A stretch of 64,000 nucleotides of DNA from Patescibacteria group bacterium (lineage in GTDB: Bacteria > Patescibacteriota > Microgenomatia > UBA10105 > UBA927), in NCBI GenBank assembly GCA_035510735.1, contig DATKGN010000006.1, positions 65,429 to 129,428 of the forward strand. Direction: 5' to 3'. Below, piece by piece: positions 2,249-34,934 of the stretch. Positions within the stretch are counted from its first letter, which is position 1, and each line of letters opens with the position of its first letter. Position numbers and translations under genes: made by a program. Below the pieces are notes generated by a model. That model was not told the origin of the DNA and ran no database searches. It worked only from the letters and a program-made list of their open reading frames with translations.

Positions 2249-3668
2249 GCGCCTCCTTCGTCCACGGATTGAAGTCCGTTTCCTGTTCATAGAGATATGC
2301 AGCCCGAAGTACCGTTTCCTCCTGCCAGTGATTTGCCATGATGGAAAGTCCTAAGGGAAGTCCCGTTTTTTTATCCCAATAGCATGGGACACTTATGCCC
2401 GTGAGTCCGGATAATGAACTGGGCTCGTTGAGTAAGTCAGTAAGCTCTCCAAAAAGAGGATTCCCTTCGCTCTCACCGAATTTGAGTGCCGGACCGGGTG
2501 TTGCGGTAGAAATGAGCAGATCATATTTTGAAAACAGCTGGGCAAAGTTTTTTATGTAGAGATTGCGTACTTTTTCCGCCAAAACGTAGTATTTATCCGC
2601 ATAACCCTTCGACAACGTAAAGGTGCCAAGCATAATCCTCCGTTTGGCTTCCGCACCGAACGTGCTTCTATTATGACCGTAACGGATGCCGTCATAGCGG
2701 GCTAAGTTGCTACTAACTTCGCTCCGTTGGACGACGGTATAGACGCCGACTGCATAATCGGGATTGAGTATGGTGTTGTCTTCTAATTGATCTGAAAGGG
2801 CAACCTTCTCTACTGTTGCACCATTCTTTTCAAACAGTTTTCCCGCTTCTTCAACGGATTTCTCGGTTTGTGTACCTTTCAACTGCGGGTGGTCCATGTA
2901 GCAGATGCCGATCTTCAGTCCCTTCACTCCTTTTTTGAGATTTGAGGCGTAATCGGGCACCGGCAATTCTCCGGTCGTTGCGTCATACGGATCTTTCCCT
3001 GCGATGACAGATAGAAGTATTGCCGCATCCTCGACCGTTTTAGTCATGGGGCCCGGTGAATCCAGGGAGCTTCCCATTGCCACAACCCCCGTGCGGGGCA
3101 CGCGGCCATAGGTGGGCTTCAACCCCACCGTCCCGCACCATGCGGATGGGATGCGGATAGAGCCTGCGGTTTCGCTTCCCAATGCCGTGATGCACATGTT
3201 AGCGGCAACAGCTGCTGCGCTTCCACCGGATGAACCTCCGGGCACGTGAGCTAAATTATTCGGATTTTTTGTCGGGCCGAAATCAGAGGTTTCGGTACTG
3301 CTGCCATGCGCCCAAGCATCCATGTTGGTTTTGCCAACGACCACGCCACCTGCCTTCTTAAGCCGTGACGTGACGGTCGATTCGTACGGCGGGTTGAAGC
3401 CTCTGAGAACATTCGAGGATGCCGTGGTTTCCAACCCAACCGTCAGAAAATTATCTTTGACCGCAACCGGCACACCCGCAAGCGGCGTATCCAATAGTTT
3501 CTCAGCTTGACTAACCGCTTCAGTATTGAGAGCGAGGTACGCATTAAGCTCTTTATTTTTGCCGGCAATCGCCTCCGACACATCAGCATAAAGCTCCTTA
3601 TGGGAAATCTCTTTGGATTTGAGTTTTTTAACGGCAGACGCAAGTGTAAGCGTGTTCAATTTTTTCAT
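2241..3668 (-). CDS. gatA: Glu-tRNA(Gln) amidotransferase subunit A (amidase signature family)
   Basis: 475 aa with a Gly/Ser-rich amidase signature ([13 protein letters not shown]). Ordered gatC-gatA-gatB. Confidence 0.9.
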
Positions 3669-4005: not shown

Positions 4006-5352
4006 TTACATGTCGACGAGATACCGCGACAGTTCCCAGTCCGTCACCCAACGCCTAAAGCTGTTCCATTCCTCGCCTTTGGCTTCCAGATACCGCTTCC
4101 ACGTATATTCACCGAATGTTGAGCGGACAATTGTGCCTTTCTCTATTTCGGTAAGTGCCTCGCCCAGACTCGCAGGGAGTTTGGTGATGTAGTGTTTGGC
4201 TAGCTTCGCATCGTCAAACTCAAACAGGTTTTCCTCAACCGGCGCGGGCGCTTTCATTTTCCGTTTTATGCCCTCAAGCCCGGCCTTAAGCAAAACTGCG
4301 AAGGTGAGATATGGGCTTGCCGACGGATCAGGACAGCGTATCTCAAAGCGTGTCGCTTTGTTTTCCGTTCCTTTGGAAATCTTGGGGACACGGATGAGAG
4401 CTGACCTGTTAATTCTCGCCCATGATACGTACGCCGGCGCTTCAAAGCCCGGAGTTAACCGTTTGTACGAATTGACAATCGGCGCAAATACTCCGGCCAA
4501 TTCTTTCGCGTACTTTAATTGTCCCGCTAAAAACTGATATGCCACCTGCGACAATCCGTAAGCATCCTTGGGGTCGTACATGGCGTTTTTAGACCCAATC
4601 CACAGACTCTGGTGGGTATGCATGCCGCTGCCGTTTATGCCGTAAAACGGTTTGGGCATGAATGTCGCGTGCCACCCGTGCTGGTAGGCTATAAAGCGGG
4701 CTGCCATTTTGAGAGTCACCGTGTTGTCCGCGGTTTTCAGGGCCTCACCGTAGCGGATATCAATCTCATGCTGGTTATCGGCAACCTCATGGGTACTGGT
4801 TTCGGAAACTATCCCCATGCTGTCTAAACCTTCCATAATCTTCCTCTTTATGGTGTATGCCTCATCCATGATAAGGGTGAAGTAATACCCATTTCCGCGC
4901 GATTCGCGTCGGATAGTGCCGTCCTCATTTTTCGGAAGCAGGAAAAATTCACACTCAGGGCCGGTGTAGTAGTCGAGACCCATTTTCTTGGCTTCGGCAA
5001 GAACCCTCTTTAATATATTTCTCGGATCACCCTCAAACGGCTCGTGGTTCGGCGTATAGACGTCACAGATAAGCCTCGCGACTCTACCGGTGGCTACTTC
5101 ATTGCGCCATGGAAGAAGTGCATAAGTCGAGACGTCCGGTACCAAATACATATCCGACTCGTGGATACGTGCAAAGCCCTCGATTGAAGATCCGTCTATC
5201 CAGACGCCGCTTGTGAGAGCCCCCTCCAGGTTATAAATAGGGATGGTCGAACTTTTGACGTTGCCCATGAAGTCGTTAAACTGTAGATCCACAAATGCTA
5301 CTTTGTCTTTTTTTGCTTTCGCAAGTAATTCTTTCACTTCATCTTTTGCCAT
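4006..5352 (-). CDS. glnA: Glutamine synthetase type I
   Basis: 448 aa GS-I-like sequence with a GGGGG SD upstream of the ATG at 5350-5352. Confidence 0.9.
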   Translation of the reverse strand: MAKDEVKELLAKAKKDKVAFVDLQFNDFMGNVKSSTIPIYNLEGALTSGVWIDGSSIEGFARIHESDMYLVPDVSTYALLPWRNEVATGRVARLICDVYTPNHEPFEGDPRNILKRVLAEAKKMGLDYYTGPECEFFLLPKNEDGTIRRESRGNGYYFTLIMDEAYTIKRKIMEGLDSMGIVSETSTHEVADNQHEIDIRYGEALKTADNTVTLKMAARFIAYQHGWHATFMPKPFYGINGSGMHTHQSLWIGSKNAMYDPKDAYGLSQVAYQFLAGQLKYAKELAGVFAPIVNSYKRLTPGFEAPAYVSWARINRSALIRVPKISKGTENKATRFEIRCPDPSASPYLTFAVLLKAGLEGIKRKMKAPAPVEENLFEFDDAKLAKHYITKLPASLGEALTEIEKGTIVRSTFGEYTWKRYLEAKGEEWNSFRRWVTDWELSRYLVDM

Positions 5353-13382: not shown

Positions 13383-13416
13383 AGGATATTACTGTAGGCC
13401 AATCGTAGCACAATCA

Positions 13417-13445
13417 TTGTGTGCTCCTCAAATTTGATTTATAAT
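13417..13445 (+). promoter_or_regulatory. Candidate promoter TTGTGT-N17-TATAAT, 11 nt upstream of tRNA-Asp
   Basis: Hexamers read from the sequence. Confidence 0.3.
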
Positions 13446-13456
13446 CTTTTAGCCGT

Positions 13457-13531
13457 GGGGTTGTAGCTCAGCCTGGTTAGAGCGCTTCCCTGTCAAGGAA
13501 GAGGTCACGGGTTCGAACCCCGTCAGCCCCG
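13457..13531 (+). tRNA. tRNA-Asp (anticodon GUC), CCA not encoded
   Basis: Cloverleaf folded by hand: acceptor GGGGTTG/CAGCCCC, anticodon loop CTGTCAA, T-loop TTCGAAC, discriminator G. Confidence 0.9.
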
Positions 13532-13720
13532 CATAGATAATTTTTAGCGATCCTGATCCGCAAACTGACGGAGAAGGAGAGTTTAGAAATTTCTATGTCC
13601 TCCTCGCGATCGCTCCACGAGCCGTCCCGCCATCTGGCGGATGTAAAGGCGAGTGGCAAGACGCGGGGGACTTTAAACTGCTTTCAATATCTCTGCCTGG
13701 AACGGAGGAACCTTTCTACA

Positions 13721-29968: not shown

Positions 29969-32326
29969 GTGAAGAAAATTCTCCCATTTATTACTCTTAT
30001 ACTGTCATATTTAATAACTGTTTCTCCAGTTTTTGCTATTTCAACATTTACTAGATACCCTCAAAATCCAATTCTCCAATCTATCGGATTAAACCCCGTA
30101 ATCATAAATAAAGACGGTCAATATAAAATGTGGTACAACGTAAATTATGGTCAAGGCTGGAGAATAAACTACGCTTATTCAGAAAATGGAATTAACAATT
30201 GGACAATACCATATCAACAAATTATACCCGTTGGGTCCCCAGATGGGTTTGAAAAAGACATGGCGGATTTTTATGTACTATTTAACACTTCACTCAACGA
30301 ATATCAAATGTGGTATTCCGCTATTAGTCAAAACTGGCAAAGCGGACCAGATCGTTTTAGGTTGGGTTATGCAACATCGATTGACGGAATAAATTGGACT
30401 AAAAGTGCTGATTGGGCTTTAAAAGGAACTTTAGGTTCATGGGATAGCGGAGGGATGGCGAGAGGTGTTTCAGTTGTTTTTAAAGATAATAAATACCAAA
30501 TGTGGTATTCAGCCACAGATGACGGCTTTAATTGGAAAATAGGCTATGCAACCTCGTCTGATGGTGCAAGCTGGACAAAACAAAATACACTTAATCCAAT
30601 AATAATCCCAAGTGAACCTTGGGAACTAAACGGCGTTAGCTATCCAAACGTAATTTACAATAGCGGATTATATGAAATGTTCTATGCAGCAAGTCCAACT
30701 GAAATGCCTTCCCAACTTATTTATGCCACATCTATTGATGGTATAAATTGGAATAAGTCTTACAATAATCCAATTGTTAAAGGAATAGATACCTATGACA
30801 ATACTTTTATAAGTACACCATTCGCAATGCGATTAGAAAATGGCACTACTCTATTATGGTACACCGGAAACGGATATTATATTTTGCTCGATACCGACGG
30901 TCCGATACCCACCGCCATCCCCACTCCCACCCCTACTCCCACTCCCACCTCTCCCCCCAATCCCACACCATCCCCATCACCCACACCGACTCCAACCCCC
31001 ACGCCAACGCCGACGCCAATCCCACAAACGACAAAACAAGTTATTGTCATCCCGGGAATGACAGCGGGTTGGAATGCAAAAGATATAGTCTTTTGTACAG
31101 CCACACCGAATGCATCATGGTCTCTCATTGATCCGGCTAATGACGTTTATAACCCTATTCTTCAACGATTAAAAAACGACGGCTGGCAGGCAACATTATT
31201 TCCGTACGACTGGCGAAAGCGCGTTTCAGATAACGCTAGTCTTTTGAAATCGTTCATCGATTCTCATGTAAAACCCGGAGAAAAAGTCGACGTTGTTGCC
31301 CACAGTATGGGCGGGCTCGTCGCAAGAAGTTATTTGGAACAGGAAACAACAAATAATAAGATTGACAAACTCATAACCGTGGGGACGCCACACAAGGGAT
31401 CTGTAGATTCATATCCCACATGGTCAGCTGGAGTACCCCCAGAAGACGGCGGTCCGCTATGGAAATTCTATGTATTAGCGATTGAAAAGTTGTGCTGGAC
31501 AAAAACACGAAATGACCGGATTGCCATCCAAACATATTTTCCTTCAATTCAGGATTTACTCCCGACATTTGATTATTTAATAGATAATCAAACCAACAAA
31601 TCAAAACCAGTACAATTAATGACAGCCAAAAACCAGTGGTTATTAAATTCGACGTTCGCTCCTCCATATTATGGCACCACAATGGGTACACTTTCAGGCA
31701 CCGGTCAAAATACGGAGCAGACATTCAGGGTTGAACCTCCAAGCCAAACAGACAAGCAATTAGGCAATTGGCAGGACGGCAAACCGGTTAAAATCATAAC
31801 AACAACAAATGGTGACAACAGGGTTCTCCTAGCAAGCAGTACGCTACCTCAAGCCAATAACTTGGGACCAATTGACGAGGATCACACAAATCTTATATCG
31901 TCCCGCGATAGCATAAACATAATTATGGACTTTCTAAGAGGCCCCAAAATGGCGCAGGCAATGATGCTTACGACTCCGCTGACCCAAACCACTCCGAAGT
32001 CGCACAAACAAGAGTCTACATCTCCTACTTCAGGACTCTTTATAGTTGGCTATCCGGCAACACTTTGGGTTATCGATCCTCACGGCAAATTTTACAAAGA
32101 CACGGACGGTTTGGTTTCGATCATGGACCCCAAAGCCGGCCTTTATAAACTTATTTTCTGGCCGAAAGAAAAGGAAACTAAATTAATTGTCGCCCAGATG
32201 CTTGCTGATAACAAAAATTATTGGAAGGAATATGATTTCACGACACGCTTCCCACAATTCCATGCGCCACAAATTCATTTTTTGATGTTCGACAACAAGC
32301 ATCCGAAAGAAGATATCCTCCATTAA
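29969..32326 (+). CDS. Secreted multidomain protein: signal peptide, beta-propeller (glycoside-hydrolase-like repeats), Pro/Thr linker, alpha/beta-hydrolase lipase/esterase domain
   Basis: Signal peptide MKKILPFITLILSYLITVSPVFA. Four repeats of the form (Q/Y)MWY(S/N)...IGYATS.DG.NWTK. A PTPTPT linker. A GxSxG nucleophile elbow VVAHSMGGLVARSYL of the PGAP1/LCAT-like type. Confidence 0.8.
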   Translation: MKKILPFITLILSYLITVSPVFAISTFTRYPQNPILQSIGLNPVIINKDGQYKMWYNVNYGQGWRINYAYSENGINNWTIPYQQIIPVGSPDGFEKDMADFYVLFNTSLNEYQMWYSAISQNWQSGPDRFRLGYATSIDGINWTKSADWALKGTLGSWDSGGMARGVSVVFKDNKYQMWYSATDDGFNWKIGYATSSDGASWTKQNTLNPIIIPSEPWELNGVSYPNVIYNSGLYEMFYAASPTEMPSQLIYATSIDGINWNKSYNNPIVKGIDTYDNTFISTPFAMRLENGTTLLWYTGNGYYILLDTDGPIPTAIPTPTPTPTPTSPPNPTPSPSPTPTPTPTPTPTPIPQTTKQVIVIPGMTAGWNAKDIVFCTATPNASWSLIDPANDVYNPILQRLKNDGWQATLFPYDWRKRVSDNASLLKSFIDSHVKPGEKVDVVAHSMGGLVARSYLEQETTNNKIDKLITVGTPHKGSVDSYPTWSAGVPPEDGGPLWKFYVLAIEKLCWTKTRNDRIAIQTYFPSIQDLLPTFDYLIDNQTNKSKPVQLMTAKNQWLLNSTFAPPYYGTTMGTLSGTGQNTEQTFRVEPPSQTDKQLGNWQDGKPVKIITTTNGDNRVLLASSTLPQANNLGPIDEDHTNLISSRDSINIIMDFLRGPKMAQAMMLTTPLTQTTPKSHKQESTSPTSGLFIVGYPATLWVIDPHGKFYKDTDGLVSIMDPKAGLYKLIFWPKEKETKLIVAQMLADNKNYWKEYDFTTRFPQFHAPQIHFLMFDNKHPKEDILH
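30898..31030 (+). repeat. Low-complexity CCN/ACN codon repeat encoding the (PT)n linker
   Basis: cccactcccacccctactcccactccc..., read directly. Confidence 0.8.
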
Positions 32327-32331
32327 ATTCT

Positions 32332-32682
32332 CTATTCTCCTGGATTTCCTATAATAGTTAACATAAATTGAGGAATATTATTTGTTATAGAAAATATAGT
32401 AACAGACAAAAACGATAATACTAGTGATAGTGGACCCATAAAAATAAAAACCCAATAGTTTAACTTACGTTGAAGTATAAAACAAAATATTACATATAGT
32501 AGCAACAGTAAAACATAATAAACAGCAGAAATTTTTGCATACATGTAAGAATATACTGCAATCAAAATGACCAATGAAACTAAAATATTGTCTGATTCGA
32601 AATAATTAGGATAATGGAAAATAAACCATGGAGTTTTTATTAATAAAAATATTATGATCGGCCAGACAAACAGTTTCCACAT
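32332..32682 (-). CDS. Small hypothetical membrane protein (116 aa, 3-4 TM)
   Basis: Hydrophobic ORF; no other support. Confidence 0.4.
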   Translation of the reverse strand: MWKLFVWPIIIFLLIKTPWFIFHYPNYFESDNILVSLVILIAVYSYMYAKISAVYYVLLLLLYVIFCFILQRKLNYWVFIFMGPLSLVLSFLSVTIFSITNNIPQFMLTIIGNPGE

Positions 32683-32791
32683 AAATAACCGAACTTATGG
32701 ACGTTTCAATGTCTATTATATGCCCTTTTTGTTGTCAAGGTGAAAAACTGGGATCGCATCTCTGAAGACATATTGCATTAACACAAATCTA

Positions 32792-32812
32792 TGAGCGGTA
32801 TAGGAATCGGAC
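32792..32812 (-). repeat. Copy of the 3'-terminal 21 nt of tRNA-Val (20/21 identical to 33898-33918)
   Basis: gcggtataggaatcggac is identical at 32795-32812 and 33901-33918. Flanking bases diverge. Confidence 0.7.
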
Positions 32813-32818
32813 TCAGGT

Positions 32819-33778
32819 TTAAAACATAAATGCCGCTACCTCTTGTTCGTTTAATGGCCCCTGCATAGCATCAGGACTATCTGTTCCGGGGACCACATCA
32901 TAGGCATCTAACTTTATATGTATAGGTACGGCATACCGAAGTTCATCTGTTGCCGATGAATAATGCACAAATACGGGTTTTGGTTCCAAACATAATGTCG
33001 TGACCTCAACATGTCCGTCATCTCGTTTCGCTACTTTCCTCATTACCAATGAGTTTACATCGTTTGATACATCTCTATCATATAAAACAAGATAAGAAAC
33101 CGATGGTAATACAAGCTCAGTATGATAATGACTTTCCGTTACCTGAAAATGACCGTAGCTGTTGTAAAATCCCCTATCGCTACCGCGAAATACGAAATTT
33201 GGATGTAAGATTAAGTAGCTTTCTTTCCCTGGGTTTTCTTCTACAAACGGAATTTCATTTCGCAAACCTACACACGCGTTGTTAGGATATTTTTTTCGCA
33301 ACTTCTTTTCCTCGGACGAATCGTTATAACGTGCCTTCAGATACTTAATGGTTCCCGTGTCAACAAATATTGCGCGTAATGCTGACATCCGCAGCCTTTT
33401 GGCATCAGGATGGTCAAATTTCGAATACCGGTTTTCTCTATCAACTTTATACACAGAAGGGCTTGCAATATGCCAAAAAATCTGGTCTATGAGAATCGAC
33501 TGTGTGACGGGAATAATTTCCGCGTTCGTAAGCATTTCCCTGCCACTCACTAAACCGAGATTATCGCGCACAAATGCGTCAGCGTTTTCAAATATCTCAA
33601 GCCATTGGTTTCCTTTTTCCAGATATTCACCAATATCGCGTTTGTCTAAGTGTCGTGGCAAAAATCCGGACGTAACCATTCGGAATATCTCTTTCGTGAG
33701 CCTCCCCCGATCAAATCCGGCAGATAATGAGTCTATAAACTCTCCTTGTTCTTTTCCAGACGGCAATCCAGTATACAT
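32819..33778 (-). CDS. Hypothetical protein (319 aa), no recognisable motifs
   Basis: Long non-repetitive ORF bounded exactly by tRNA-Val and the tRNA 3'-fragment copy. Confidence 0.55.
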   Translation of the reverse strand: MYTGLPSGKEQGEFIDSLSAGFDRGRLTKEIFRMVTSGFLPRHLDKRDIGEYLEKGNQWLEIFENADAFVRDNLGLVSGREMLTNAEIIPVTQSILIDQIFWHIASPSVYKVDRENRYSKFDHPDAKRLRMSALRAIFVDTGTIKYLKARYNDSSEEKKLRKKYPNNACVGLRNEIPFVEENPGKESYLILHPNFVFRGSDRGFYNSYGHFQVTESHYHTELVLPSVSYLVLYDRDVSNDVNSLVMRKVAKRDDGHVEVTTLCLEPKPVFVHYSSATDELRYAVPIHIKLDAYDVVPGTDSPDAMQGPLNEQEVAAFMF

Positions 33779-33897
33779 AGAGATCGTATTATATCCTATA
33801 GGTCATAATTTATCTAATGTACGTTCCTGGTAAATCGTATGATCTGAAGCGAATGCGGCGTGAGAGTGGTAGGACAATAATATTCTTAGACGTATTG

Positions 33898-33970
33898 TGG
33901 GCGGTATAGGAATCGGACCTATGACCTTTTCAATGTCAATGAAACGCTCTACCAGCTGAGCTAACCGCCC
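33898..33970 (-). tRNA. tRNA-Val (anticodon GAC), CCA not encoded
   Basis: Reverse complement folds as GGGCGGT-TA-GCTCAGCTGGTAGAGC-G-TTTCA-TTGACAT-TGAAA-AGGTC-ATAGGTCCGATTCCTAT-ACCGCCC-A. Confidence 0.9.
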
Positions 33971-33973
33971 TAT
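33958..33973. repeat. 16-bp direct repeat copy 1 (gagctaaccgccctat), spanning the tRNA-Val 5' end and the GIY-YIG stop codon
   Basis: Identical 16-mer at 34288-34303. Confidence 0.7.
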
Positions 33974-34209
33974 ATTCTATTTTTCAAAAATCCTCTACCA
34001 AAACCCGTCTTAAAGTATTTTTCCCTAAGCTGAGCCTTCTTTTTAGTCACACATGCTTCGTAATATACAAGCTCTAAAGGTTTTCTATGTTTGGTAGCTT
34101 CAACATCTCCAGAATTATGTTCTTTTAATCGTCTCTTCAAGTCCGATGTTGAACCAACGTATAATCTCTTATTCTTAGTACTCTTTAAAACATACGTATA
34201 ATAAAACAT
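33970..34209 (-). CDS. Small GIY-YIG nuclease-family protein (UPF0213/YhbQ-like, 79 aa)
   Basis: YTYVLKS...RLYVGSTSDLKRRLKEHN matches the GIY-YIG core. The TAG stop overlaps G1 of tRNA-Val. Confidence 0.75.
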   Translation of the reverse strand: MFYYTYVLKSTKNKRLYVGSTSDLKRRLKEHNSGDVEATKHRKPLELVYYEACVTKKKAQLREKYFKTGFGRGFLKNRI

Positions 34210-34287
34210 TAATAAATACGAGCTAGCTGCTCGACGTATAGCTTCGCAATACGCCGAGCCCGACAGTCGTGTATAGCTCGACGTCGG

Positions 34288-34303
34288 GAGCTAACCGCCC
34301 TAT
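34288..34303. repeat. 16-bp direct repeat copy 2 (gagctaaccgccctat), a duplicate of tRNA-Val 5' nt 1-13 plus 3 flanking nt
   Basis: Read directly. Followed by a dyad-symmetric element cgacgtatagc...gtatagctcgacg. Confidence 0.7.
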
Positions 34304-34367
34304 TGGATGTCCTTGACGATACATATTATATCACCTACACTGGTTTTAAAGGTATATTATATTTTCT

Positions 34368-34934
34368 ATGGATGGCCTCAAACGAATAGTCGCGGCTATT
34401 TTTGATTTTTTACAGGGAATTGTTGTCGTCCTCGCTGTTCTCGTGATGATTTACCTCTTCATCATGTCTCCGCAGGAAGTCAATGGAGCCTCAATGGAGC
34501 CGAATTTTCATAACGGCGAATATATTCTCACCAATAAAATTGAGTATAAATTCCGTGAACCCCATCGCGGCGATGTCATTATTTTCAAATCATGGTCGGA
34601 TAAAAATGTGGATTATATTAAACGGGTCATCGGTCTCCCGGGCGATACCGTACAGCTTAATAACAATGCAATGTATGTAAACGGAGAAAAATTGGATGAG
34701 AACTATCTCGCATCGGATGTCATCATATTCGGCGGATCGTTTTTGCAGGAAGGACAAACCATAACTGTGCCGCCTGATATGTATTTTGTCTGCGGAGATA
34801 ACCGTCCGCACAGCTCAGATTCTAGGGAATTCGGACCCGTCGCAAAGGATGATATCGTGGGAACCGTTATATTCCGGTACTGGCCGTTCTCACAGTTCGG
34901 GACGCTCACCCATCCGGTCTACAACATCAATTAA
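34368..34934 (+). CDS. lepB: Signal peptidase I
   Basis: Boxes SMEP, KRVIGLPGD and GDNRPHSSDSR. 188 aa. Confidence 0.85.
   Translation: MDGLKRIVAAIFDFLQGIVVVLAVLVMIYLFIMSPQEVNGASMEPNFHNGEYILTNKIEYKFREPHRGDVIIFKSWSDKNVDYIKRVIGLPGDTVQLNNNAMYVNGEKLDENYLASDVIIFGGSFLQEGQTITVPPDMYFVCGDNRPHSSDSREFGPVAKDDIVGTVIFRYWPFSQFGTLTHPVYNIN

Follow-up and report, generated by a model that had tools for sequence, protein, structure and literature searches.

This article concerns a tRNA-Val(GAC) gene of a Patescibacteria group bacterium that is accompanied on both sides by partial copies of itself and by small genes, one of which encodes a minimal GIY-YIG protein. The gene lies in a 64,000-nucleotide stretch of DNA (contig DATKGN010000006.1 of assembly GCA_035510735.1, positions 65,429 to 129,428), which we refer to as the window and whose own numbering is used throughout. 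The tRNA gene is intact (33897-33970, on the minus strand, as are all features with coordinates in this and the next paragraph; detected by ARAGORN, and 69.8 bits with the Rfam tRNA model) and is 100% identical to the tRNA of three related loci, L151, L149 and L086. Directly upstream lies an open reading frame (ORF) for a 79-aa protein, a minimal GIY-YIG gene of the UPF0213/Slx1-like type (33970-34209; PF01541, 1.9e-19, 70.1 bits) whose TAG stop codon overlaps tRNA nucleotide G1. Beyond the start of this gene, positions -3 to +13 of the tRNA recur exactly at 34288-34303 (16/16 identical to 33958-33973, with two matches in 0 of 100 shuffles). An earlier first-pass annotation, made from the letters of the sequence, had described the gene, the overlap and the 16-nt repeats flanking it, and these stand; what has to be revised is the picture of a simple repeat, since the old 5' part of the tRNA extends further and has a mobile double hairpin inserted into it. 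The continuation, which that annotation had overlooked, consists of nucleotides 14-21 at 34217-34224 (AGCTcGTA, a 7/8 match, in register), ending 7 nt ahead of the GIY-YIG ATG, and the interruption at tRNA nt 13/14 is a 59-nt double-hairpin module (approximately 34229-34287). Read from the promoter side, the order is tRNA -3 to 13, hairpin module, tRNA 14 to 21, 7 nt, and ATG. The motif gtgtaGGTGATATAAT...tcgtcaa is kept immediately 5' of tRNA-Val in relatives whose site is empty, and its conservation suggests that the extended -10 element of the window (GGTGATATAAT, 34325-34335) is the native promoter of tRNA-Val; in the window, what follows it is the upstream fragment and not the intact tRNA.

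On the 3' side there is an orphan ORF of 319 aa (32819-33778), the cargo of what we take to be a separate insertion, preceded by a promoter-like candidate from a consensus scan (TAGATA-17-TATAAT, 33788-33816). Six nucleotides past its stop codon begins a remnant, R1 (32792-32812), which repeats the 3'-terminal 21 nt of the tRNA (nt 53-73) with 20/21 identity to 33898-33918 (again two matches in 0 of 100 shuffles), as had been reported from the first inspection. A second remnant had escaped notice: R2 (32686-32725) is an older, decayed copy of nt 21-60, identical at 29 of 40 positions. R1 and R2 score 38 and 36, respectively, whereas 300 shuffles reached 30 at most, and the repeats at both ends of the tRNA are real and non-random. 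Between R2 and a 785-aa gene lies an ORF for a 116-aa predicted membrane protein (32332-32682). A group I intron or another known RNA was considered and rejected; Rfam (E <= 1) finds only the tRNA in 32300-34500, and the tRNA is uninterrupted. The neighbouring genes encode ParB, signal peptidase I, L27 and L21. The locus is not an assembly artefact, because several other samples have yielded assemblies with the same arrangement (L001-L004, L166 and L167). The reading we favour, and consider reasonably probable, is that two independent insertions have affected one tRNA gene of a Microgenomates-like genome: on the 5' side a tRNA-invading cassette composed of a nuclease gene and a hairpin, and on the 3' side a slot that takes up single-gene cargo. 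All comparative data that bear on this reading come exclusively from metagenome-assembled genomes and metagenome assemblies.

The 79-aa protein comprises little besides its catalytic domain. The PF01541 match (cut-off 22.6 bits) spans residues 3-71, that is, 69 of 79 residues, and Pfam, NCBIfam and PHROGs reveal no further domain, including any DNA-recognition domain. Its nearest relatives in the PDB are 1zg2 (UPF0213 protein BH0048, 2.1e-8), 1ywl (EF2693, 2.3e-6) and 7wme (SLX1, 0.009), so the closest solved structures belong to UPF0213 and SLX1 rather than to UvrC or I-TevI. This bears out the earlier guess of a YhbQ/UPF0213-like protein, and sequence similarity places it in the UPF0213/YhbQ/Slx1-like minimal branch of the GIY-YIG superfamily (see also PMC1564403). 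NCBI attributes the identical protein to a Patescibacteria group bacterium. We found 303 homologues, mostly named Patescibacteria; the 120 that were listed are 63-78% identical. Residues Y6, Y17, R27, H31, E51 and E63 are invariant across 32 homologues, and by analogy Y6, Y17, R27, H31 and E63 are putative catalytic-motif residues. The 64-kb window contains no further GIY-YIG gene. The family occurs at a single locus among 2.9 million viral contigs, and a phage origin of the cassette was rejected on this ground. More distant GIY-YIG subfamilies, with N-termini MEGYVYII..., MKGWLYIL... and MKGFLYIL..., were seen at L011 (approximately 2930-3200), L103 (approximately 600-810) and L104 (approximately 1474-1701), where they lie 3' of tRNAs or in the T-loop of dead tRNA copies, each with a different type of hairpin.

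The association with a tRNA gene extends throughout the family. We retrieved 80 genomic loci of GIY-YIG homologues and counted the 65 genes that are followed by 100 nt or more of sequence. A co-oriented tRNA starts between -20 and +160 nt from the stop codon in 58 of these 65 (within 20 nt in 43), compared with an expected rate of approximately 0.9% from the tRNA density of the same flanks (P ~1e-109). At least 13 isotypes are involved (Val, Lys, Asn, Gln, Asp, Phe, Met, Pro, Thr, His, Leu, Arg and Ala). At most loci the 5' part of the cognate tRNA, usually starting at position -4 to +1, is also copied upstream of the ATG: an exact copy of nucleotides 1-9 of the cognate tRNA is present within 160 nt before the ATG at 30 of 58 loci, and one of those of other isoacceptors in 2 of 3004 comparisons. 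The upstream copy is contiguous in tRNA coordinates, is split by a GC-rich hairpin of 45-60 nt, and ends 0-29 nt before the ATG. At L057, for example, positions -4 to 20 and 21 to 36 lie on the two sides of the hairpin (25/25 and 16/16 identical); the corresponding segments are -2 to 21 and 22 to 33 at L056 and -1 to 20 and 21 to 30 at L038, and the copy at L025 extends as far as nt 38. The window follows this family-wide pattern exactly, and its cassette appears from these comparisons to be one copy of a widespread family that combines a minimal Slx1/UPF0213-type GIY-YIG gene with a cognate palindromic hairpin.

Several other properties of these loci were recorded. A variant found at tRNA-Lys(UUU) (L015, L026, L031, L032, L060, L074 and L082) has the order of its own TTGTCA/TATAAT-like promoter, the ORF, and a hairpin abutting tRNA nt 1, with GGGCC on both hairpin sides and the long upstream tRNA fragment absent. 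At L047 (approximately 2735-3000) and L029 (approximately 2740-2900) the tRNA that follows the GIY-YIG gene was missed by ARAGORN and has, by eye, an insert in the anticodon loop, possibly a group I intron like those of PMC13011429. Short 3' tRNA remnants are present at approximately 8 of 56 GIY-YIG loci. The GIY-YIG gene often lies near a contig end, which would fit assembly breaks at such loci.

The double hairpin differs from what the first-pass annotation had described as a dyad-symmetric element; the strings quoted there are not reverse complements of each other, and a repeat search lists no such inverted repeat. Instead there are two adjacent hairpins, A (CCCGAC...GTCGGG) and B (CTCGGCGTAT-TGCGAAGC-TATACGTCGAG). 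Folded as DNA, the module reaches -24.4 kcal/mol (z = -4.65 relative to shuffles), and compensatory changes are found in 9 of 22 pairs among six homologous modules. The double hairpin is a clade-specific type common to the window and to L005, L006, L009 and L010, which, together with L012, form one clade of a short and weakly resolved protein tree and are located at tRNA-Val, tRNA-His and tRNA-Asp. The loop of hairpin B (TGCGAAGCT, 34236-34244) is conserved in L005, L006 and L010 and contains GCGAAGC, which we take to be an extraordinarily stable DNA mini-hairpin motif; if so, it would favour a DNA-level role of the module. Elsewhere in the 64-kb window there is no CCCGCCCGC-type hairpin, and apart from the module's own copy the loop motif has one 9-mer match, at 4202, which we judge to be due to chance.

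Orthologous loci differ in the orientation and position of the module. At the syntenic locus of a Gottesmanbacteria genome (L005) it is reverse-complemented (score 74 vs 21) and inserted at tRNA nt 8/9 instead of 13/14, and the same tRNA-Asp is interrupted at 7/8 in L009 and at 13/14 in L010. The hairpin therefore constitutes a unit at the DNA level whose movement or re-insertion does not depend on the ORF. A hairpin pattern scan of both strands of 347 kb of flanking sequence gave 102 hits, of which 84 lie at most 120 nt upstream of a GIY-YIG ATG and nearly all of the remainder just 3' of the ORF or beside a GIY-YIG gene that the detector had missed; no hairpin unconnected to a GIY-YIG gene was found in these flanks. 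The pattern detection is incomplete, recognising hairpins at 45 of 70 loci. We looked across the family loci for a single fixed insertion coordinate and found none, and the module has no clear terminal repeats and no consistent target duplication. The 3' end of the hairpin lies approximately 9-35 nt before the ATG (mode approximately 15-17) regardless of the interrupted tRNA coordinate; possible reasons for this constancy are a constraint at the RNA level and a linked double break.

In its form the module resembles a miniature inverted-repeat transposable element (MITE) or a repetitive extragenic palindrome (REP): it is a short structured palindrome, present in multiple copies, in either orientation, and nested at L071, L020 and L025. 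Short GC-rich palindromes that occur in either orientation and nested in an AT-rich genome are also known from the REP/RAYT systems and from mitochondrial GC-cluster or double-hairpin elements. As in those systems, the palindromes are genetically linked to one dedicated small nuclease gene. The REP-associated tyrosine transposases (RAYTs) are, however, HUH/Y1 transposases whose REPs are dispersed genome-wide, whereas the nuclease here is of the GIY-YIG type and the hairpins were seen only beside its gene and inside dead tRNA copies. One could regard the hairpin as the true mobile unit, MITE-like, preferring tRNA-like DNA and moved in trans by the nuclease, with the ORF rarely moving and the tRNA duplications arising as by-products of repair after a hairpin has entered an essential gene. 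The nesting, the two orientations and the different coordinates at orthologous loci speak for this, as do the confinement of hairpins to inactivated tRNA copies and the situation at L017, where an intact tRNA-Val lies between the two arms of a hairpin sited in the D-loop of another tRNA-Val. The absence of hairpins away from GIY-YIG genes and of identifiable termini or target duplications speaks against it, and presence and absence of the ORF at orthologous sites shows that the ORF moves as well. We consider this explanation unlikely, though worth keeping in view.

The two-insertion reading that we prefer draws much of its support from sites at which one or both inserts are missing. A metagenome scan provided 64 syntenic tRNA-Val loci with an adjacent signal peptidase. 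At 49 of them the site is empty, with a gap of 40-100 bp (approximately 50 bp) between peptidase and tRNA and no GIY-YIG gene; 6 are occupied, by GIY-YIG genes that belong to other subfamilies and are each accompanied by their own type of hairpin; at 8 the gap measures 147-212 bp, and several of these hold relics, such as L095, where the C-terminal codons (FKTEFGIVLIKNRI and the stop codon) alone survive from the ORF; and the remaining one (L150) has a 1658-bp gap. The closest relative found, L151 (flank 90% and tRNA 100% identical), has neither the GIY-YIG gene nor the 319-aa ORF, and the upstream flank of the window is fused there to an uninterrupted tRNA (...gacatcaaaaa joined directly to GGGCGGTTAGCTCAGCTGG). 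The arrangement is therefore not universal among relatives, and the earlier proposal that both intervals were inserted agrees with the empty 5' sites and with the lack of the 319-aa ORF in L005 and L151. The two insertions appear to be mutually independent, because L005 has the GIY-YIG gene without the 319-aa ORF, L151 has neither, and L086 has the 319-aa ORF without the GIY-YIG gene. The converse situation is found at another tRNA of the window, tRNA-Asp(GTC) (13383-13532, tRNA at 13457), which is cassette-free with its promoter directly in front; in the syntenic loci L009 and L010 (flanking proteins 61-63% and 44-45% identical to those of the window) a tRNA fragment, the double hairpin and the GIY-YIG gene lie between the homologous promoter and tRNA-Asp. 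Tandem units occur at L052 and L029, and L009 has a second unit that keeps only the last codons of the ORF.

At related loci the resident tRNA has been replaced. In L118 the ORF, a different tRNA-Val that is intact, and a hairpin have been inserted at the anticodon (34/35) of an old tRNA-Val, whose 3' half persists downstream. In L104 the ORF and a new tRNA lie inside the old T-loop, between 32-nt repeats. L092 and L109 carry 27 nt of a GGGCTCA-type tRNA ahead of a GCGCGCG-type tRNA, and L116 has nucleotides 1-43 of the old gene, with a hairpin in the D-loop, ahead of a different allele. Foreign tRNA-Val alleles thus stand alongside the ORF in L104, L118, L119 and L139 and persist in L092, L109 and L116; their position next to old fragments indicates that at least some events import a tRNA allele. 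L065 has a dead, hairpin-bearing copy 3' of the live tRNA. At the syntenic tRNA-Val site (L086-L152) at least 20 acceptor-stem types occur among relatives whose signal peptidases are 50-94% identical, a diversity that may reflect repeated allele replacement.

These observations also bear on the view that the gene is a domesticated host gene maintained in tRNA operons, for instance one for a structure-specific nuclease that acts on tRNA genes or transcripts, with the hairpin serving as a stabiliser or processing signal of the RNA and with presence and absence reflecting loss. Such a function would account for proteins that are approximately 70% identical across distant phyla, nearly always intact and invariant in their putative catalytic residues, for the fairly constant hairpin 3' end 9-35 nt ahead of the ATG, and for a context that is stable within species in a family almost absent from viral contigs; a fusion of GIY-YIG to TrmH, the tRNA Gm18 methyltransferase, has moreover been noted (PMC1564403). 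It fits less well with the switching of partner tRNA within one protein clade, with 49 of 64 syntenic sites being empty, or with relics, tandem units, nested hairpins and hairpins in both orientations. Duplicated tRNA 5' ends and replaced alleles are, furthermore, scars of DNA rearrangement that an operon model does not predict. On balance we regard a purely domestic role as improbable.

For the 3' side, the window and its relatives document a slot that is used repeatedly. In L005 the stop codon of the homologue of the 785-aa gene lies 2 nt past the tRNA, so the whole interval 32327-33896 is extra in the window. The 319-aa protein has no match in Pfam, NCBIfam or PHROGs, which agrees with its earlier characterisation as a motif-less protein other than an integrase. 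Only two homologues, 31-36% identical, were recovered from collections of 5.8 billion and 1.84 billion proteins, one of which (L085) is in an unrelated context with no tRNA, and AlphaFold models (pLDDT 31.5 from the single sequence and 39.5 from a 3-sequence alignment) were both unusable. The 116-aa ORF is absent from L005, and the assemblies in which it was found all belong to the same strain; it may stem from an older insertion, and a promoter-like site for it (TTCACC-18-TATAAT, 32715-32744) lies within R2. L151 carries at this place (within its positions 1-830), and in the same direction, an unrelated orphan ORF of 234 aa, followed at the contig start by a tRNA remnant made of D-arm and T-arm pieces. 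The slot 3' of the tRNA thus appears to carry different orphan genes in relatives. Along the strand, the intact tRNA is followed by the cargo, by R1 (young, nt 53-73) and, 65 nt further on, by R2 (old, nt 21-60). This order is compatible with a series of events at the live copy of the tRNA, each displacing the earlier remnants further out. Over 529 bp (the N-terminal part of the 319-aa ORF and the tRNA) the DNA of L086 is 99% identical to that of the window, and identity falls to 73% on the peptidase/ParB side; this pattern would result either from horizontal transfer of tRNA and cargo or from a chimeric contig joined at the identical tRNA. A second contig matching the right half of L086 was sought and not found. 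The 785-aa ORF itself (29969-32326) has a long Pro/Thr-rich linker (30850-31100), with low-complexity DNA of strong GC skew, between an N-terminal repeat domain and a C-terminal region that contains GHSMGG, a motif typical of lipases and esterases.

The first-pass annotation had seen in the 3' repeat the classic attL/attR footprint of integration, and in a broader form one might interpret both repeats as att footprints of satellite-like elements integrated by a recombinase encoded elsewhere or on a helper phage. Both inserts are indeed flanked by direct repeats of tRNA ends, relatives have empty sites, the slot of L151 holds different cargo, and the 21-nt R1 covers the region from the T-arm to the 3' end, which is typical of integrase core sites (Williams 2002, as cited in PMC9897764). 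Nevertheless, neither the inserts nor the flanking few kb contain an integrase, the 319-aa and 116-aa ORFs having no family match, and R2 (nt 21-60) and the L151 remnant (D-arm and T-arm) are internal pieces of a tRNA instead of 3' cores, which misfits a single crossover at the 3' end. The 5' copies are variable in length and hairpin-interrupted, and include duplications of the 5' half up to the anticodon, and whole different tRNA alleles have been imported. Classic integration is for these reasons not upheld, and the broader version seems to us quite improbable. Finally, a tandem duplication of tRNA-Val by slippage, followed by erosion and by the origin or capture of ORFs between the copies, as in the eroded-array alternative raised earlier, could explain three partial copies and one intact copy of the tRNA sequence within 1.6 kb, but it is very improbable given a single intact tRNA-Val at every syntenic locus inspected in detail, the same GIY-YIG architecture at 13 or more tRNA isotypes in hundreds of genomes, and the replacement of resident tRNAs by foreign alleles.

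For the nuclease-and-hairpin cassette of the favoured two-insertion reading, we propose the following sequence of events. The nuclease would break a resident tRNA gene and spread in a homing-like manner, the break being repaired by copying from a cassette-bearing allele. The partial upstream tRNA copy and the intact downstream tRNA would act as homology arms, portable between genomes because tRNA sequences are highly conserved. The cassette, often with a replacement tRNA allele, would be copied in, and pieces of the old gene would remain; it would then sit inside the former 5' part of the tRNA gene, with the old 5' end (-3 to +21) staying on the native promoter. No promoter of its own is recognisable for the GIY-YIG ORF in the window, and the ORF would probably be read from the tRNA promoter and released upon tRNA processing. 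The hairpin could be a structured DNA substrate of the nuclease or an insertion that marks and inactivates the old target, and it may in addition shorten direct repeats that would otherwise lead to deletion of the ORF. Judged from the sequence comparisons, break-and-repair copying from an occupied allele is the most likely mechanism, although we advance it as a tentative preference.

Several findings weigh against this interpretation. The 79-aa protein is a catalytic domain without a DNA-binding module, which makes sequence-specific homing of the I-TevI or Seg kind unlikely unless a partner or a structural target is involved. The site at which hairpins interrupt the tRNA varies from nt 5 to nt 22, that is, there is no single site of cleavage or insertion. 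At most loci, the window included, the new tRNA copy does not differ from the old fragment, and no resistant allele can be demonstrated there. The identical proteins P0094 and P0064 are each found in a single context in more than 20 assemblies, which gives no sign of a recent jump, and recent transposition was rejected on this ground. The high conservation and near-constant integrity of the protein across phyla would also fit a function beneficial to the host. On the 3' side, the 319-aa ORF comes without a recombinase or other mobility gene, and L086 is a potential chimera joined at the 74-nt identical tRNA.

Among known systems, the nearest parallel is SegB of phage T4, a free-standing GIY-YIG homing endonuclease encoded in a tRNA gene cluster and capable of intronless homing (PMC2330249). 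The cassette shares with it an intron-free GIY-YIG gene next to tRNAs, polymorphism for presence and absence, and probably co-transfer of adjacent markers, which in the related loci would be tRNA alleles. In contrast to Seg and Tev proteins, which have 200-250 aa and DNA-binding domains, the cassette protein is a 79-aa catalytic domain of the Slx1/UPF0213 branch, and unlike segB the cassette is chromosomal in Patescibacteria (with one viral hit) and comes together with a palindromic hairpin and a target tRNA that is partly duplicated. By this analogy the cassette would work most like the free-standing GIY-YIG homing genes while lacking their DNA-recognition domain. In the candidate phyla radiation (CPR), rRNA genes contain GIY-YIG ORFs in insertions that are neither group I nor group II introns, and insertion sequences in these genes generally sit, for the most part, at the tops or bases of stem-loops (PMC11270868). 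These resemble the cassette as non-intron GIY-YIG insertions in a structured-RNA gene of the same host group, but their location is within rRNA genes, and they are reported to be sparse and not to spread by homing; the main text of that study does not contain the word tRNA and describes no tRNA association, duplicated ends or replacement.

Integrative elements that target tRNA genes (PMC9897764) likewise leave a partial tRNA copy at the far end and keep the tRNA intact, and their slots are reused by other cargo with older remnants pushed outwards. The inserts described here differ from them in having no integrase, in being single-gene inserts of 0.3-1.1 kb compared with 5-100 kb, and in the hairpin-interrupted duplication of the tRNA 5' half and the retention of internal tRNA pieces. 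Group I introns have been found in Patescibacteria tRNA genes near the anticodon, at 35/36 (PMC13011429); they share the hosts and the near-anticodon insertion (34/35 in L118) with the cassettes and may co-occur with them at L047 and L029. In the cassettes intron RNA is absent and the tRNA is regenerated by duplication or replacement instead of splicing. The main text of PMC13011429 does not mention GIY-YIG (0 occurrences). A full-text literature search found no description of a tRNA-linked GIY-YIG cassette, which is not in itself proof of novelty; the family is widespread in Patescibacteria and apparently undescribed. That it represents a new class of mobile element, in which a Slx1-type GIY-YIG nuclease of approximately 79 aa is paired with its own hairpin, recognises the stem-loops of tRNA genes or hairpins and not a long sequence, invades any tRNA isotype and persists in genomes with single-copy tRNA genes because it regenerates or imports the tRNA, is a possibility that we rate as somewhat less likely than not, and put forward more cautiously than the insertions themselves.

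If this interpretation is correct, it would explain a recurrent and unremarked feature of these genomes, namely small GIY-YIG genes at the 5' ends of tRNA genes in the company of tRNA fragments and GC-rich palindromes. It would also suggest a candidate substrate, either the hairpin or tRNA-gene DNA, for the uncharacterised minimal nucleases of the UPF0213/YhbQ/Slx1-like kind, and a nuclease of 79 aa with a hairpin of 45-60 nt would be among the smallest pairs of nuclease and site known. With its uptake of single orphan genes, the slot on the 3' side of the tRNA may supply these organisms with lineage-specific genes. The cassettes point to a way in which foreign alleles could take the place of tRNA genes that are essential and present in a single copy in very small genomes, and would, if they act as proposed, drive xenologous turnover of tRNA alleles across Patescibacteria.

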